A DNA stretch of 36,696 bases from a virus (Duplodnaviria; Caudoviricetes), in IMG/VR virus record IMGVR_UViG_3300012953_000083, positions 1-36,696 of that record; one strand, 5' to 3'. Under the pieces are notes generated by a model, which worked only from the letters and a program-made list of their open reading frames with translations, did no database searches and was not told where the DNA came from. Below, piece by piece: positions 5,337-36,696 of the stretch (position 1 is its first letter; each line of letters begins with the position of its first letter). The position numbers were made by a program, and so were the translations under genes.

Positions 5337-5694
5337 ACCTGAAGAACTTGCTTGTCGTCATACCGGACAAGAAGGAATTAAGTATGAGTTAATGGTGGCT
5401 TTACAAAGTTTAAGAGATGAAATGGGATTTCCTTTTATTATTACATCTGGATATAGAAGCCTAGAACACCCTATTGAGGCAAAAAAGAAAACAGGCGGTA
5501 CTCATTCTTTAGGACTAGCAGTGGATATATTGTGTTCTGACAAACAAGCATTTAAAATAGTTACTAATGCTGCAAAACATGGGTTTACTGGAATAGGTGT
5601 AAATCAAAAAGGCAGCATAGATCAAAGGTTTATTCACTTAGATATAGCAGGAATTAAAAATGGTAAAGTTCGTCCCAAAATTTGGAGTTATTAA
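5305..5694 (+). CDS. Endolysin, peptidase M15 family Zn peptidase
   Basis: F.PEELAC, ITSGYRS, H..GLAVDI and FIHLD motifs. Confidence 0.92.
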   Translation: MDMDWDFSNFRPEELACRHTGQEGIKYELMVALQSLRDEMGFPFIITSGYRSLEHPIEAKKKTGGTHSLGLAVDILCSDKQAFKIVTNAAKHGFTGIGVNQKGSIDQRFIHLDIAGIKNGKVRPKIWSY

Positions 5695-5697
5695 ATA

Positions 5698-5937
5698 ATG
5701 GAAATAACAAGTTATTTAGTCTGGAATGTAATTTTAAGTTTAATTATTGCTCCAATATTCTATGCAATTAGACAAAATACAGCAGAAAACAAAAGAATAG
5801 ATATTCTTATAAATAAAACTAGAGAAGAAATGGCAAGGTCTTATGTAACAAAACAAGATTTAGCTGAGGATATAGATAGGGTTATTTCAAACTTAGAAAG
5901 ATTAGAAAGCAAAATTGATAGGATAATTGGAACTTAA
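5698..5937 (+). CDS. Membrane-anchored coiled-coil protein (lysis-associated?)
   Basis: N-terminal TM segment followed by heptad-rich region; follows endolysin. Confidence 0.6.
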   Translation: MEITSYLVWNVILSLIIAPIFYAIRQNTAENKRIDILINKTREEMARSYVTKQDLAEDIDRVISNLERLESKIDRIIGT

Positions 5938-22261: not shown

Positions 22262-22711
22262 ATGGGTAGATCGACCGAAAGGTTAGGAAGAAGTGGGGAG
22301 TTTGCAGTTGCTAGTCATTTAGCATTATTTTCAGATACGGTAACAATAGTTCCTCATGGTTCTCATGCTGATATTCTTTTTGAGCATGAAGATAAAATTT
22401 TAAAATGTCAGGTTAAAACGAAAAGCAACGAAAGGCTGTATGAAAAAAAAGGCGTTGCTAGAAGGATTGGTTGGCAGTTTGATCTTAGACGAGGGAGGCA
22501 TACAAAAGACCGTTATTACGGAGAGAACGGAGAAAATAGTATAGACATCTATGCTCTCTATTGTATGCCATTAAATATAATTACTTATATTCCCTCTAAT
22601 TATCCTGCTACTAAAATAACTTTATCTACTGAGCAGTTAAAAAATACTGACCCCTATGAATCGCTAATTAAATCAATTAATGATTTGAGCATCAATAACT
22701 TTAGCAGCTAA
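22262..22711 (+). CDS. PD-(D/E)XK endonuclease
   Basis: G..GE..VA, ADILF and CQVKT catalytic-type motifs. Confidence 0.75.
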   Translation: MGRSTERLGRSGEFAVASHLALFSDTVTIVPHGSHADILFEHEDKILKCQVKTKSNERLYEKKGVARRIGWQFDLRRGRHTKDRYYGENGENSIDIYALYCMPLNIITYIPSNYPATKITLSTEQLKNTDPYESLIKSINDLSINNFSS

Positions 22712-23818
22712 ATTAACATTACCTGAAGATATTTGCGGAGTAACTTCACCGTATCTTTGCATTGAAGCTAAACTTTTATGACCCAACAAAGCTCCAACTT
22801 GTCTTGTTGAAATGTTAGCTGATATACACATAGTAGCGAAGCTGTGCCTTAGATCATGTAACCTTATATCAGGGCAGTTACATTTATTAGTTATTTTTCT
22901 CCATAATTTATAAGGAGTTACTATTCCAGTAATAGTTTTTGTTTTAGGATTAATAGTAGATAATTTATTAATAACCTGCATAGCCGGTTCATTTAAATAA
23001 ATAACCCTTTCTTCTCCGGTTTTTTGTCCAGTCTTGTGATGCTCAACTGGAATAATAATTTTGTTATCTTTAATCCATTCCCAACGAGCTTTAGCTATCT
23101 CACCTTTTCTTGCTCCAGTTAATATAAGCAGCCATATAAACCCAACAGTTCTGTATCTTTCTGGATTATTTAATTCAATACTATTAAGCTCATTAAATAT
23201 TTTTGCTTTTTCTAAATCTGTATATGACCTTTTAATTTTAATATCAGGGTGAGCTTTTATCTTAGAGCCTACATTAAAATCAATTCCGTAAGTCTCTTCA
23301 TCTACAGCAAAATTTAACGAAGCAATAATCATCTTTAAAGTTTTGTTGGCTACGCTCTTACTGTGTTTTGTAGCTTTCTTAAAAACTTCTTTTATATTTT
23401 TTCTTTTAAGATCACTAACTACAATATTACCTGCAAGTGACTTAACCCAATTATTATAATTTCTTTGACAATCTTCTATGTGTTTTGTTTTTACATTTCT
23501 TGATTTGCAATCATCAATATAGTCATTAAATAATTGTTGATAAGTAACAGATATATTTTCAGCAGGGTCCGGAATAATTCCTTCTTGTATATCAATTAAT
23601 GTTTCGTACATTTTGATTGCTCTATTTCTAATAGAAGTAATGCCTTCATCTTTGTATTTAAGAGGTATGGTTTTAGTTTTTCTTTTGCCGTTTTCTGACC
23701 ACAACAGCATATAACTAATTACACCGTTACGATTTCTAATTTTTAATTTACTAAAAGATTTATCTGTTTTAATTTTTTCTTTGGTAGTAAATTGGTAGTT
23801 GTTTTTATTAGTATTCAT
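22673..23818 (-). CDS. int: Tyrosine integrase
   Basis: LLILTGARKGEI (R), HKTG (K), LHDLRHSFAT (HxxR), LLGH, QRY (Y); GAGGAG SD. Confidence 0.96.
   Translation of the reverse strand: MNTNKNNYQFTTKEKIKTDKSFSKLKIRNRNGVISYMLLWSENGKRKTKTIPLKYKDEGITSIRNRAIKMYETLIDIQEGIIPDPAENISVTYQQLFNDYIDDCKSRNVKTKHIEDCQRNYNNWVKSLAGNIVVSDLKRKNIKEVFKKATKHSKSVANKTLKMIIASLNFAVDEETYGIDFNVGSKIKAHPDIKIKRSYTDLEKAKIFNELNSIELNNPERYRTVGFIWLLILTGARKGEIAKARWEWIKDNKIIIPVEHHKTGQKTGEERVIYLNEPAMQVINKLSTINPKTKTITGIVTPYKLWRKITNKCNCPDIRLHDLRHSFATMCISANISTRQVGALLGHKSLASMQRYGEVTPQISSGNVNLAAKVIDAQIIN
23781..23805. repeat. Arm-type-like tandem repeat, copy 1
   Basis: TTGGTAGTAAATTGGTAGTTGTTTT; 23/25 identical to 24016-24040. Confidence 0.7.
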
Positions 23819-24041: not shown

Positions 24042-24117
24042 TGGTGAGTCCTCAGAGGCTCGAACTCTGGACCCTACCCTTAAAAGGGGTATGCTCTACC
24101 AACTGAGCTAAGGACTC
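24042..24117 (-). tRNA. tRNA-Lys(UUU)
   Basis: 76-nt cloverleaf: GAGTCCT/AGGACTC acceptor, GCTC/GAGC D stem, TACCC-CT TTT AA-GGGTA anticodon arm, CAGAG-TTCGAGC-CTCTG T arm, encoded ACCA. Confidence 0.97.
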
Positions 24118-32951: not shown

Positions 32952-33109
32952 TCCTTAACCTCAACTTCATCTGTTTCACCTTCTAACTCCCAATTTAACT
33001 CTTCATTTTCAGCTATTTTTTCAGCCTCCTCTAAAGTGTAAGCATCAATAAAACAATACTCTTCACGAGAATATTCTCTAGTCGCTATAAATCTTTTTTT
33101 CTTAATCAT
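32948..33109 (-). CDS. Small acidic protein (53 aa)
   Basis: GAGGTG SD, TAATG-coupled; A.TLEEAEKIA motif. Confidence 0.6.
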   Translation of the reverse strand: MIKKKRFIATREYSREEYCFIDAYTLEEAEKIAENEELNWELEGETDEVEVKE

Positions 33110-33375
33110 TACGCCACCTCTTTAATTTGATTTAATACTTCGTAAATTGATTTTTGAACATACTTAGGAAAATCCTTAATGCCTTCATCTTCAGGATAGA
33201 TTTCAACATAGTCAAAATCTTCACCATACCAGTCTTGAATTTCAATCCTAAATGTTGGGTCGTCTTTATGTTCATAAAAATCGTGAACTACTAAGTCTGT
33301 TTGGTCTAAGTCCCAATGCCATACATCTTCACCATCTTTTGTGTTTATATAAAATTCTCTAAATCTTTCTTTCAT
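33109..33375 (-). CDS. Acidic hypothetical early protein
   Basis: GAGGTG SD, TAATG-coupled; D/E-rich. Confidence 0.7.
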   Translation of the reverse strand: MKERFREFYINTKDGEDVWHWDLDQTDLVVHDFYEHKDDPTFRIEIQDWYGEDFDYVEIYPEDEGIKDFPKYVQKSIYEVLNQIKEVA

Positions 33376-33719
33376 TACGCCACCTCTTTATTTTGTTTTA
33401 AGTCTTCCAGTTCAAAACATTTTAAAAAATCATCTAACAGCTCAACCAGTTCATCTTTGTCTGATACTGATAATTTTTTTATGTCTCCTTCATAACCAAT
33501 AAACTCTGGCACATCTTCTCTTGATACCCAGTCAAAAAATTCTCTTGAATATTTAGATGCAAAATCTTTGTCTCTAAAAAATCCTAAAGTGTTTATGTCT
33601 GTTGGATTAAAGTATGTAAACAGCTCCATTTGGTCTGTATGTTTTGCAAAAGAATACTCACAGATCATTTGAATAATTGTAAGTTCCTGCATAGAAAATA
33701 ATCTTTTTCTATCTATCAT
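33375..33719 (-). CDS. Hypothetical early protein
   Basis: AGGAG SD fits ATG 33719 rather than 33734; directly downstream of hammerhead 3. Confidence 0.7.
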   Translation of the reverse strand: MIDRKRLFSMQELTIIQMICEYSFAKHTDQMELFTYFNPTDINTLGFFRDKDFASKYSREFFDWVSREDVPEFIGYEGDIKKLSVSDKDELVELLDDFLKCFELEDLKQNKEVA

Positions 33720-33752
33720 TTTATCTCCTGCCATGTTTCAGGCGTTTAGTTT

Positions 33753-33826
33753 GTCTAAGAACCTGACTAATAATCGAAACTTAAATTAATCAGGTTTTCG
33801 GATATTGAATCCATCTTCAGTTAGAC
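33753..33826 (-). ncRNA. Type I hammerhead ribozyme HH3
   Basis: GUCUAA CUGAAGA U GGAU-UCAAU-AUCC GAAA ACCUGAUUAAU..AUUAGUCAGGU UC^UUAGAC; predicted cut 33759/33758. Confidence 0.88.
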
Positions 33827-34149
33827 TTTGCTTCCTCTCCTGCTTTGCTGTATTGATAAAAAGGTGAATACTCACTTACCCAGTAAGCGGCGGCAATTTG
33901 TTGAGCTGTATAGTCAACGCTGTAGCCGTTGAAATAAGTTTCTATAACATCAATCATTTTTGCCATATCTAAAACCAAACAATCAAACAAAGCGGACTGC
34001 TTGTCCTCCTCCGTAAAATAATCATCTTCCGGATTGAAACTATCCCATGAGGTCTTATCAAAATTATCTGCCCATAAAAGCAGGTCTTCTGGGACCCATT
34101 CTGCAATCACTTCATTGTGGTTGTGATCGTGAATATTATCTATCTTCAT
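33817..34149 (-). CDS. Acidic hypothetical early protein
   Basis: AGGAG SD; D/E-rich; its stop codon is the UGA of the HH3 core. Confidence 0.7.
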   Translation of the reverse strand: MKIDNIHDHNHNEVIAEWVPEDLLLWADNFDKTSWDSFNPEDDYFTEEDKQSALFDCLVLDMAKMIDVIETYFNGYSVDYTAQQIAAAYWVSEYSPFYQYSKAGEEAKSN

Positions 34150-34157
34150 TTTGTCTC

Positions 34158-34415
34158 CTATAGTTTGTAAAGGTCGTTACAAGAAATTAACTTAGCGTCC
34201 ATATAATTAGCAAAACTATCAGCTTCTAAATTTTGCTGATCTACAGTTTTATTTAATACTGGATAATCGTTTACACTAATTAAAGTAAGACCTTTGTAAA
34301 AAGTTTCAATCTTAGCTTTATAGTCAATACCAAATGTATCATCTGCTAAAACCAAGAAAGAACAAGTCTTTTGATCTTGATTAGTGTAAGAAAGTAATCG
34401 CATATATTTATTCAT
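34158..34415 (-). CDS. Hypothetical early protein
   Basis: GAGGAG SD; first gene after internal promoter. Confidence 0.7.
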   Translation of the reverse strand: MNKYMRLLSYTNQDQKTCSFLVLADDTFGIDYKAKIETFYKGLTLISVNDYPVLNKTVDQQNLEADSFANYMDAKLISCNDLYKL

Positions 34416-34464
34416 TTTGTCTCCTCGCTGTTGCGAATTTAGTTAATTAAAATATCTAGGACGG

Positions 34465-34494
34465 ATAGTAGCATATTTTTTTTGGGAGTTGCAA
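34465..34494 (-). promoter_or_regulatory. sigma70-like early promoter with extended -10
   Basis: TTGCAA-18nt-TACTAT with TGn extension; embedded in an imperfect inverted repeat. Confidence 0.7.
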
Positions 34495-34526
34495 CTATCC
34501 GCCTAAAATTAATTTTTATTTCTCCT

Positions 34527-34604
34527 TTATCTTCCAATCCATGCAGCAAAAATAAATGCAGCAATTATGCCTACCCAAAAATATAAAAGAAAAATAACCT
34601 CCAT
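34527..34604 (-). CDS. 25-aa membrane peptide
   Basis: MEVIFLLYFWVGIIAAFIFAAWIGR; TAATG-coupled. Confidence 0.5.
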   Translation of the reverse strand: MEVIFLLYFWVGIIAAFIFAAWIGR

Positions 34605-34786
34605 TATTTCACCCCCTTTGTTTTTTGACACGCTTGAAAAAATTTTCCTGAATCAAATTTATTATTATTTTCACCAAACACCTCGCAAAGATTTCCAATC
34701 AATTTAGTGGTGTCCAGTCCTTCATGCTCGTAACTATGAGCTTCTCTGATCGCTTGAGCGATTAAAATATAATCTTTTCTACTCAC
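34604..34786 (-). CDS. Hypothetical early protein (MSRKDY..IA...FD...F..AC)
   Basis: GGAGG SD, GTGA overlap. Confidence 0.7.
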   Translation of the reverse strand: MSRKDYILIAQAIREAHSYEHEGLDTTKLIGNLCEVFGENNNKFDSGKFFQACQKTKGVK

Positions 34787-34962
34787 GATGCCTCCATTTC
34801 AGATTTAAAAAAGAACATAATTGCTCCGCCTATTTCTCCTTCGTCAGCTCTTAGAGTTTCCTCTATTACATCTTCTGAAAGAGTTGATAAAAAAACCCAG
34901 TTTGTGTGACCGTAGTATTCCAAACATTGAGCATCTATCATTTCCATTTTATTTATAGTCAT
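34783..34962 (-). CDS. Hypothetical early protein (59 aa)
   Basis: Not in ORF track; AGGAG SD in the post-HH2 leader. Confidence 0.65.
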   Translation of the reverse strand: MTINKMEMIDAQCLEYYGHTNWVFLSTLSEDVIEETLRADEGEIGGAIMFFFKSEMEAS

Positions 34963-34996
34963 ATTTTCTCCTGCCTTTCGGCGTTTATTTGTTTAT

Positions 34997-35051
34997 GTCT
35001 ATGACGCTCCTTGCGGAGCGTTTCGGATATTAAATCCATCATCAGATAGAC
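34997..35051 (-). ncRNA. Type I hammerhead ribozyme HH2
   Basis: GUCUAU CUGAUGA U GGAU-UUAAU-AUCC GAAA CGCUCC-GCAA-GGAGCG UC^AUAGAC; predicted cut 35003/35002. Confidence 0.92.
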
Positions 35052-35057
35052 TGATAT

Positions 35058-35960
35058 TTATGCGGCGTTTTTCTTCTCCTCTTTCGCTTGTAGTGATCTT
35101 AAAAAATTGACTGACTTCTGTGCCTTGCTAAACGCTGTTTTAAGAGCGTTTTTGTCTTCCTTGATAACCTTTATCCAGTTATTCAAATATTTGGCGTGAT
35201 CGTCTCTTATGACCTTCTCAATGTTTAATATTTGAGATAAGAAGGCGGAGCCAATTTCAGCTATCAATTCTTCTCTGGCATACCTCTCAGAACCAAACCC
35301 ACCGGAGAGGTCTCTGTCTTCCCTGCTAGGGTGTCCGGTCCAGTGTGTCAGCTCATGCAACAGCGTTGAGTAATATGCGGTGTCAGTGAAAAAGCTATCT
35401 ATTGACGGCATAGTGATCTGATCTGCTGAAGGTCTATAAAAAGCAGCATCTCCGCCAATATGAATTTTTGCCTGTGTATTAGCAATAAATTTCTCAGCGT
35501 TTTTGATAGTCAACTTTTTAAGCTCCGGAGTCATAACCTTTTTAGCTTCTGGTACTTCGTAACCTTCAATTTGCTCAGCATTAAAAACCGTTGAGGTTTT
35601 CTCGAACCAAACAATCGGAGTCCCTCCTCTTGCTTTCAATTCTTCTTGAGCGTCTGTCAAGTTTCTAGTCTTTTCCAGTTGGCTGAAAAATGTGACCGTT
35701 CTACCTTTTGAACCTTTAATAATTTTGTGACCTTTGTCACTCCATTGTTTAAAAGTTCCCCATTCATTTGAGCTGAAACCTGACATTGACAACCAAAATT
35801 GATTCATGCCTTGATATTCCTTCTTAGAAGAAATATTTTTTTGCGGTCCTGCTGTAATCCATTGTTTGGTCCAGTCAGCTCCGGCGGTTTCCATTAACTC
35901 AATGATCTTGTTTTGCATCTCCGCAAAATGTTGATCTTTTTTGTTTACTTTCTTAGTCAT
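35058..35960 (-). CDS. ardC: ArdC-like antirestriction protein (ssDNA-binding N-domain plus zincin-like domain)
   Basis: YQGMN..L, WGTFKQW...G..I.KG.KG, VFNAEQ, AFYRPSAD.I.MP, HELTHWTGH, YAREELIAE. Confidence 0.92.
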   Translation of the reverse strand: MTKKVNKKDQHFAEMQNKIIELMETAGADWTKQWITAGPQKNISSKKEYQGMNQFWLSMSGFSSNEWGTFKQWSDKGHKIIKGSKGRTVTFFSQLEKTRNLTDAQEELKARGGTPIVWFEKTSTVFNAEQIEGYEVPEAKKVMTPELKKLTIKNAEKFIANTQAKIHIGGDAAFYRPSADQITMPSIDSFFTDTAYYSTLLHELTHWTGHPSREDRDLSGGFGSERYAREELIAEIGSAFLSQILNIEKVIRDDHAKYLNNWIKVIKEDKNALKTAFSKAQKSVNFLRSLQAKEEKKNAA

Positions 35961-35990
35961 TTTTTCTCCTGCGTTTAAGCGTTTATTAAT

Positions 35991-36040
35991 GTCTATGACG
36001 CCTCTCGGCGTTTCGCTGATTTACAGCTCTTCAGATAGAC
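35991..36040 (-). ncRNA. Type I hammerhead ribozyme HH1
   Basis: GUCUAU CUGAAGA GCUG-UAAAU-CAGC GAAA CGCC-GAGA-GGCG UC^AUAGAC; canonical core; predicted cut 35997/35996. Confidence 0.95.
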
Positions 36041-36345
36041 TAGAATTGCTGTATTACATATCCTCCGCAATCAGTTTCTAAAACTGTGGTCACATCTTTT
36101 ATGCTCTCCAATGTTGAATAAATTGTGCTTGTTCCATTGATTGAATAATCAGCAATCAATTCATCAACATTTTTATATTCCGCATAATCACAACAAATGG
36201 CAATCACATCTAATTCTAAATTTTCCAATTCAGACAAATGCTCGTACAAAGCTTTCAACCCTTCTCTTGAAAAGTTGTTGGCATATTGTCCTGAGTTTCC
36301 AAATTCATTAATGAATTGATTTTCGTTTAAAGTTTTATAAATCAT
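36040..36345 (-). CDS. First early gene; acidic hypothetical protein
   Basis: FSREGLKALY..L..LELDVIAICCDYAEY; AGGAG SD. Confidence 0.75.
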   Translation of the reverse strand: MIYKTLNENQFINEFGNSGQYANNFSREGLKALYEHLSELENLELDVIAICCDYAEYKNVDELIADYSINGTSTIYSTLESIKDVTTVLETDCGGYVIQQF

Positions 36346-36396
36346 TTTTTTTCTCCTGCCGTTTGGCGTTTGTTAATGTCTATATGTGCATTTAAT

Positions 36397-36415
36397 ATTA
36401 TCTGTCCTAGATAAT
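36397..36415. promoter_or_regulatory. Palindromic operator-like site in the putative early promoter
   Basis: ATTATCT-GTCCT-AGATAAT; 16/19 match to the reverse complement of 34451-34469; minus-strand TTGATT overlaps its edge. Confidence 0.55.
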
Positions 36416-36544
36416 CAACCCCTATAATGAAAATAATTTTTATCAAAATGCTATTAAATGCCGGAAAACTATATATAATGGGGGTTACAGCCTGAAAAAA
36501 AAGTTTAAAATAAATTTCAATTAGTGACATAAAAGCAACTATTA

Positions 36545-36696
36545 ATGACTGAAAAAGATAAAAAAGAACCTAAAAAAGCAGGTAGAAAAGCAATAAATAT
36601 TGATCTTGATGAGGTCCGGAGACTTGCCGGACTGGGACTGTCAGAACGCCAAATCGCTGTTCAACTGGGCGTTTCATGGTCAACGCTTCACAGAAA
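36545..36696 (+). CDS. terS: Terminase small subunit, N-terminal HTH (partial)
   Basis: MTEKDKKEPKKAGRKAINIDLDEVRRLAGLGLSERQIAVQLGVSWSTLHR; runs off the end; would precede terL on a circular map. Confidence 0.75.
   Translation, partial: MTEKDKKEPKKAGRKAINIDLDEVRRLAGLGLSERQIAVQLGVSWSTLHR

Follow-up and report, generated by a model that had tools for sequence, protein, structure and literature searches.

What hammerhead ribozymes do in phage operons has been an open question since they were discovered there, and a minus-strand locus of an uncultured temperate phage of marine origin suggests an answer that is concrete and can be tested. The window analyzed here is the whole of viral record IMGVR_UViG_3300012953_000083, 36,696 bases and complete by estimate. 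The locus is an early anti-restriction operon that starts near 36383, divergent from a helix-turn-helix (HTH) gene, and encodes a 101-aa protein without a known family, an ArdC-like anti-restriction protein and a series of small proteins. Four repeated leaders stand in it, three directly behind predicted type I hammerheads and one at the operon start. We give roughly even odds (about 0.5) to the reading that these repeats are the 5′ leaders of separate pieces of the early-operon message and work as standard expression slots; the observations that bear on it are the sequences themselves, their conservation, their link to first cistrons and the breakpoints of gene cassettes.

All four leaders described in the first-pass annotation were found on the minus strand where it had placed them and read as it had written them. 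A fifth leader of the same build, which it had missed, lies further into the operon:

Leader L0, 36383-36343, minus strand: AUAGAC-AUUAAC-AAAC-GCC AAAC GGC-AGGAG-A7-AUG; no ribozyme upstream.
Leader L1, 35996-35958, minus strand: AUAGAC-AUUAAU-AAACGC-UUAAAC-GC-AGGAG-A5-AUG; degenerate hairpin.
Leader L2, 35002-34960, minus strand: AUAGAC-AUAAACAAAU-AAAC-GCC GAAA GGC-AGGAG-AAAAU-AUG.
Leader L3, 33758-33717, minus strand: UUAGAC-AAACU-AAAC-GCC UGAAACAU GGC-AGGAG-AUAAA-AUG.
Fifth leader, 34441-34413, minus strand: CGC AACA GCG-AGGAG-ACAAA-AUG; behind a strong stem-loop at 34455-34507.

The core AAACGC-N(2-12)-GCAGGAG matches the window four times, each time on the minus strand, and has no match in 100 dinucleotide-preserving shuffles. 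In predicted folds, a hairpin forms between the 5′ end and the Shine-Dalgarno (SD) sequence of L0, L2 and L3 and weakly in L1, and the SD is unpaired in all four. A mini hairpin had been claimed for every leader; this stands for L0, L2 and L3, while L1 has two pairs at best. As a separate observation, the 5′ end of L2 after the cut, AUAGACAU, can fold back onto AUGACUAU at the start codon of that leader (34933-35002, minus strand; minimum free energy -6.6 kcal/mol, z = -3.5), and L1 can form the same pairing, weakly.

L1, L2 and L3 start exactly at the predicted scissile bonds of three ribozymes (GUC^AUAGAC, GUC^AUAGAC and UUC^UUAGAC, respectively):

HH1, 35991..36040, minus strand: type I hammerhead, predicted cut between 35997 and 35996.
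HH2, 34997..35051, minus strand: type I hammerhead, predicted cut between 35003 and 35002; extra U at 35038.
HH3, 33753..33826, minus strand: type I hammerhead, predicted cut between 33759 and 33758; extra U at 33813.

In each of them a descriptor finds stem I, the core CUGANGA, stem II, GAAA, stem III and UC before the cut, arranged as in type I: loops close stems II and III, and stem I is left open. Stem I is GUCUAU/AUAGAC or GUCUAA/UUAGAC, and the first base of HH1 is the last base of the stop codon of the first open reading frame (ORF1). The minimum-energy fold is the three-way junction for HH1 and HH3; HH2 favours an alternative structure. Rfam searches of the whole window and of 3.7 kb of it returned no hammerhead; on narrow stretches of 66-71 nt, RF00163 gave full-length matches to HH1 (27.1 bits, E 2.2e-5) and HH2 (19 bits, E 0.011), both under the gathering score of 34 bits. 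Scanning viral contigs for stem I plus core yielded 98 loci. When HH1 was aligned with 25 viral-contig units (n = 26), 7 of 15 pairs were retained through two-sided changes, all of which fall in stems II and III, stem I being fixed by the search pattern. Judged by their sequences, HH1-HH3 look like genuine hammerheads and are predicted to cleave. A scan of cellular genomes (one per prokaryotic species) gave 33 matches, three of them true hammerheads, and identified no host; in the collections scanned, the ribozyme family with stem I GUCUAW is essentially viral.

Two minor points concern the ribozymes themselves. The extra U bases of HH2 and HH3 sit between A9 and stem II and are missing in all four metagenome runs compared and in a close relative, G001; at the HH2 site, a second close relative, G002, carries an additional A, and an extra base after A9 may tune cleavage. 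A pseudoknot between loop II and the flanks was considered and rejected, as complementarity between them showed no excess in 69 units (2.97 and 3.38 observed vs. 3.08 and 3.27 permuted).

The hairpin is linked to first cistrons. AGGAG-N4-9-AUG occurs at 25 sites in the window, and only four of these, namely L0, L2, L3 and the fifth leader, have an abutting hairpin with three G+C pairs. Such a hairpin thus stands before 4 of 5 first cistrons vs. 0 of 12 internal starts listed, which are mostly overlapping or coupled and for which the absence of a hairpin was judged by eye. Fisher's test, computed on 4/5 vs. 0/7, gave p = 0.010, with the start at 34415 counted as a first cistron by post hoc judgement.

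At the operon start, the leader without a ribozyme lies directly behind a promoter-like site:

Predicted early promoter, 36384..36418, minus strand: TTGATT-17 nt-TTAAAT-6 nt, read by eye.

This promoter would place +1 at 36383, the A of AUAGAC in L0, and its geometry is also found in G001 (locus L043). A palindrome, TATCTAGGACAGATA (36399-36413, exact match), overlaps it and is, by its sequence, likely an operator. The bases before AUAGAC in L0 are CAU, which is not an N-U-H cleavage triplet. L0 was also considered as a ribozyme target half, cleaved in trans, and dismissed, since two bases ahead of the junction it has A instead of U.

A second operator-like palindrome was noticed further into the operon. 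A strong stem-loop (34453-34507) holds TATCCGTCCTAGATA at 34453-34467, a one-mismatch copy of the palindrome at the promoter, and is followed by a U-rich run and then by the fifth hairpin-SD leader. This stem-loop may serve as a terminator within the operon, as an operator or as a second point of entry.

The same units are carried by the two close relatives. G001 has three hammerhead-leader units and, directly before ArdC (L043), a promoter-proximal leader identical to L1 of the window; G002 has four hammerheads, with the hairpin leader after three of them, and its orthologue of the fifth leader reads CGC UACG GCG-AGGAG. Among the 11 leaders of the window, G001 and G002, which were found by a pattern that does not require the third hairpin pair, this pair is C-G in seven, U-A in two (GCU...AGC) and absent in two (the L1 type). 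A stretch of roughly 200 nt at the start of the G002 operon (L163, about 5440-5700), non-coding and unrelated to the window leader, may be a structured RNA.

The hairpin-SD block is also retained in phages further removed, behind wholly different hammerhead stems (stem I GCACUA, GCACUU, CUACUA and CCCA). G003 has two units, with stem I CUACUA and GUCUAU, that carry GCC AAAA GGC AGGAG and GCC GAAA GGC AGGAG; three loci with stem I GCACUA (L075, L076 and L135) carry GCC GCAA GGC U AGGAG, one with stem I GCACUU (L077) carries GCC GAAA GGC AGGAG AAAAU AUG, and G004, a G+C-richer fragment with stem I CCCA/UGGG, has two hairpin-SD units. The hairpin-SD pattern has 15 matches in 388 kb of these loci vs. 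0.45 in shuffles, about five of the 15 looking like chance or coding. Across viral contigs, a TAGAC leader pattern matched 69 loci, with relatives only in G001 and G002 and the rest chance or a coding motif; an ATG leader pattern matched at least 122 loci, and among the matches listed only G002 and G004 were relevant. A MAFFT alignment of 19 leaders left the loops out of register, and no pair count was taken from it.

In three lineages, hairpin-SD leaders stand behind promoter-like sites with no ribozyme. These are the window with G001; G004, whose operon start has TTGACC-17-TAAATA before the leader; and L081 and L093, which have TTGTCA-17-TATAAT with a palindromic spacer directly before ArdC. 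The proposal in the first-pass annotation that cleavage gives internal genes nearly the leader of the primary transcript is borne out in part: the leaders are the same sequence module and the pairing recurs in other lineages, the end of the primary transcript being a predicted one.

Viewed across the GUCUAW hammerhead family, the mini hairpin is one lineage-specific solution inside a common layout, because each lineage has its own repeated leader. An SD with an open start codon lies within 45 nt of the cut in 49 of 83 distinct true GUCUAW units vs. 8 of 101 control windows, 45 of those 49 starts lie 20-39 nt from the cut, and the post-cut leaders of the family are 55% A. Some leaders contain a downstream copy of the 5′ strand of stem I and, to judge from this copy, could refold into a 5′-terminal hairpin. 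L164, L173, L199 and L226 are dense in hammerheads (3-4 per 1.5 kb), and behind each of these stands UUAGAC-AAUCAA-GUCUAA, in which the 3′ strand of stem I could refold with the downstream copy of its partner into such a hairpin. As a further observation, a TTGACA-17-TAnnnT promoter-like site stands directly behind the hammerhead in L171, L172, L193, L194, L216 and L227, and also in the fourth units of L164 and L173; read-through RNA at such sites would be cut just before the new start.

For the locus in the window, we infer cleavage in vivo, a defined transcription start and an effect on translation or stability, which would fit together as follows. Hammerhead cleavage leaves a 2′,3′-cyclic phosphate and a 5′-hydroxyl, and in the type I form the ribozyme body is retained on the upstream product. 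The predicted cuts by the type I hammerheads would divide the polycistronic RNA, with each ribozyme body remaining at the 3′ end of its upstream piece. The downstream piece would keep six bases, AUAGAC or UUAGAC; behind these come a brief A-rich run, the G+C hairpin of 3 bp and, 5-7 bases ahead of AUG, an AGGAG predicted to be unpaired. The matching leader of the first gene would come from the promoter with its predicted start at the A of AUAGAC, and the promoter-made message would in this way mimic the cut messages. Every first cistron would load ribosomes from the same short leader, regardless of the sequence upstream or the ORF behind it, and the 5′ end of a message would be a triphosphate or a hydroxyl, never a monophosphate. 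The hairpin could keep the SD accessible, stack on the helix that the SD forms, protect against 5′-end-dependent decay or bind a factor. The idea that leader and ribozyme together form an insulator, put forward in the first-pass annotation, is plausible on this arrangement.

Several observations weigh against leaders that work as standard slots. No convincing hairpin forms in L1. The G002 leader between a hammerhead and ArdC has none either, and the hairpin is dispensable there; the G002 operon starts with a different leader, the stretch of roughly 200 nt. The 3-bp hairpin is marginal in energy (leader folds z = -1.6, 0.0, -3.5 and -2.9), and many of the hairpins were found by patterns that demand pairing, which makes their covariation weak evidence. 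Most of the 83 hammerheads with the same stem I have other leaders. A sigma-70 scan lists no minus-strand promoter before L0, where the site was read by eye; a search for RNA runs containing the region gave none; and with only 3 of the 33 cellular-genome matches being true hammerheads, the host was not identified. Lastly, the repeats in the window's own lineage could be alike through recent duplication.

Genes turn over at the leaders, the first gene among them:

ORF1, 36040..36345, minus strand: 101 aa, without a family match; acts like a mobile cassette.

When the window is compared with G001, L0 and L1 both align to the single G001 leader, and the stretch between them is missing from G001. 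The starts of L0 and L1 are 387 bases apart, and the unit of ORF1 and HH1 is bounded by the two leader copies; metagenome contigs of runs X8 and X9 show a 387-base skip from 35997 to 36385. Skips of 266 bases run from 34144 to 34411 (an 85-aa ORF with a 15-nt repeat; X2, X5 and X9) and from 33105 to 33372 (an 88-aa ORF with a 19-nt repeat; X2 and X5). The 15-nt and 19-nt repeats at the borders of these skips, seen in other marine metagenomes, are copies of the SD-start region; cassettes are therefore also bordered by plain SD repeats. The contigs hold one replacement besides the skips, and their loose ends (33715, 33762, 34952, 34986, 36041 and 36349) fall at start codons, stop codons and ribozyme edges; reads were mapped at 85% likeness, and joints under 95% can stem from other organisms. 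ORF1 itself recurs at 100% amino-acid identity in three other contigs (L423-L425) with unrelated flanks: the DNA likeness extends from about 4 nt before AUG to the stop codon, with an unrelated leader upstream and a different hammerhead (stem I ACCUA/UAGGU) downstream.

The leader/ribozyme punctuation coincides with cassette breakpoints, which had been missed before, and, the same punctuation being repeated, it is also the site where single ORFs are gained, lost or replaced. It had earlier been suggested that AUAGAC at the operon start competes for stem I of HH1; this found no support, and because the leader is the direct repeat that bounds the polymorphic 387-bp cassette of ORF1 and HH1, the presence of AUAGAC in L0 is explained more simply. 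As a possible extension, offered tentatively, a type I hammerhead with a fixed leader, whose mini hairpin would stack on the SD, may form a natural plug-and-play slot that frees the expression of an ORF from its neighbours and lets messages made by ribozyme and by promoter begin alike, and so enables phages to exchange anti-defence ORFs one reading frame at a time. Two ORFs, at 33719 and 32951 of the window, were also seen to share their first 12 bases, ATGATAGATAGA, and in G001 a hammerhead-leader unit joins directly to the ORF whose start in the window is 32951.

Breakpoints at the leaders also suit the rival account that survives best, in which the likeness of the leaders is history only, carried along by cassettes that are copied and that recombine at short intergenic repeats, with no selected role beyond that of an ordinary SD. 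This account draws on the identity of L1 with the single promoter-proximal leader of G001, on the position of the polymorphic 387-bp ORF1-HH1 unit exactly between two leader copies, on the plain SD-start repeats (15 and 19 nt) found at the borders of other indels, and on the degenerate hairpin of L1 and the hairpin-free leader before ArdC in G002. History by itself fits poorly with a hairpin-SD that persists where ArdC is only about 50% identical and the hammerhead stems are wholly different, that is confined in the window to first cistrons, and whose stem is kept through changes from GCC/GGC to GCU/AGC and to CGC/GCG. We regard it as unlikely.

The SD-adjacent hairpin might instead bind a trans-acting factor that controls all first cistrons, such as a repressor of early-gene translation or an N-like peptide acting on a boxB-like hairpin. 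The stem is nearly fixed, with GCC/GGC in 15 of 19 leaders retained and aligned, the loops are often GNRA-like (GAAA, GCAA), and the motif stands at every regulated entry point, including those behind operator-like palindromes. The hairpin presumably resembles lambda boxB, and no search for boxA or for an N-like protein was made. A regulator of this kind is set against a loop length that varies from 4 to 8 nt and against the lack of a candidate protein, 12 of the 13 small operon proteins scanned having no family match at threshold. We find this account improbable, a shade more so than history.

That the leader serves the ribozyme, by aiding or tuning its folding or through competition of AUAGAC in L0 for stem I of HH1, is very improbable. 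In its favour, a stem I sequence common to all units makes cross-pairing possible in principle, and L2 can base-pair between its 5′ end and its start region (z = -3.5). Against it, three lineages have the leader with no ribozyme at all, loop II and the flanks show no excess complementarity in the 69 units, the AUAGAC leader at the promoter is retained in variants that lack ORF1 and HH1, and L0 has no U at the position before the cut-site base.

The reading of the leaders as standard slots invites comparison with known systems. In RiboJ insulators, a self-cleaving hammerhead reportedly cuts away the RNA upstream of it, with a small hairpin placed ahead of the SD, which is said to make the 5′ untranslated region (UTR) independent of upstream sequence; RiboJ was reportedly engineered from a satellite-RNA hammerhead that is retained on the downstream RNA, and its hairpin is said to be longer. 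Like RiboJ, the phage units have a hairpin between cut and SD and a single-stranded SD, as predicted (weakly for L1). Unlike RiboJ, the type I form in the phage would leave just 6 nt downstream, the hairpin has 3 pairs, and the function is read from sequence. By this analogy, the phage element would work like an insulator part and is not a member of the RiboJ family, because the ribozyme body is not on the downstream, translated RNA.

PeSL cassettes of T4-type phages combine an early promoter with a terminator stem-loop, according to passages of PMC2839356 and PMC4122927. As described there, they share with the phage units the repetition of short intergenic motifs in a plastic early region, at borders where small ORFs are inserted, deleted or replaced between close relatives. 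They differ in that the phage unit is a ribozyme with a translation leader within one operon, not a promoter with a terminator; promoter- or operator-like sites precede only L0 and perhaps the leader at 34425.

The phage element fails one defining feature each of RiboJ and PeSL and is filed with the known phage hammerhead clusters, as a variant with a standard leader. Perreault et al. (2011, PMC3088659) described clustered hammerheads that flank single prophage genes, including ardA, and proposed processing to gene-length mRNAs. The main text of that paper resembles the present case in having several hammerheads around single genes or short blocks of varying identity, and an anti-restriction gene directly behind a ribozyme (ardA there, ArdC-like in the window). 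It differs in that the words "ribosome" and "translation" have 0 occurrences in that main text, where leaders are not treated and the hairpin-SD leader, its promoter-side copy and the breakpoint pattern are not described. In the literature searched, no paper on standard leaders behind phage hammerheads was found; the supplements to PMC3088659 may show leaders in figures.

Two more distant systems share part of the arrangement. The plastid intercistronic expression element, in the portion of PMC2230500 that describes it, turns an operon transcript into stable, translatable monocistronic pieces; unlike the phage units it involves protein-assisted processing and no ribozyme, in another domain of life. 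Type I hammerheads in the 5′ UTRs of RNA viruses are needed for translation initiation according to PMC13725137. As in the phage, an ORF follows closely on a type I hammerhead; self-cleavage is tied there to translation of that ORF, as is proposed for the phage. The setting given there is unlike the phage locus, with eukaryotic hosts and cap-independent initiation and no SD, operon or promoter-made twin of the leader.

The locus holds its own natural controls, in the form of leaders with and without a ribozyme, hairpin alleles that preserve pairing and variants in the population that are one cassette apart. Should the leader equalise expression, engineered ribozyme insulators would have a precedent in nature and a source of compact parts, of which only 6 nt remain on the message. 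The rapid swapping of anti-defence genes without retuning of their expression would then also be explained.

Other features place the operon in the phage:

ArdC-like anti-restriction gene, 35058..35960, minus strand: 300 aa; Pfam ArdcN 1.9e-21, MPTase-PolyVal 3.7e-47.
Integrase, 22673-23818, minus strand.
tRNA, 24045-24117.
HTH gene, 36545-36694; runs past the right end of the window.

The ArdC-like protein also matches PHROG 7245, an anti-restriction protein, at 2.5e-70; the 3.7-kb region as a DNA query against a phage collection gave no match. The plus strand of the window carries a portal gene and replication genes. The HTH gene is read as resuming at the left end of the window, and the record is for this reason taken as circularly permuted.

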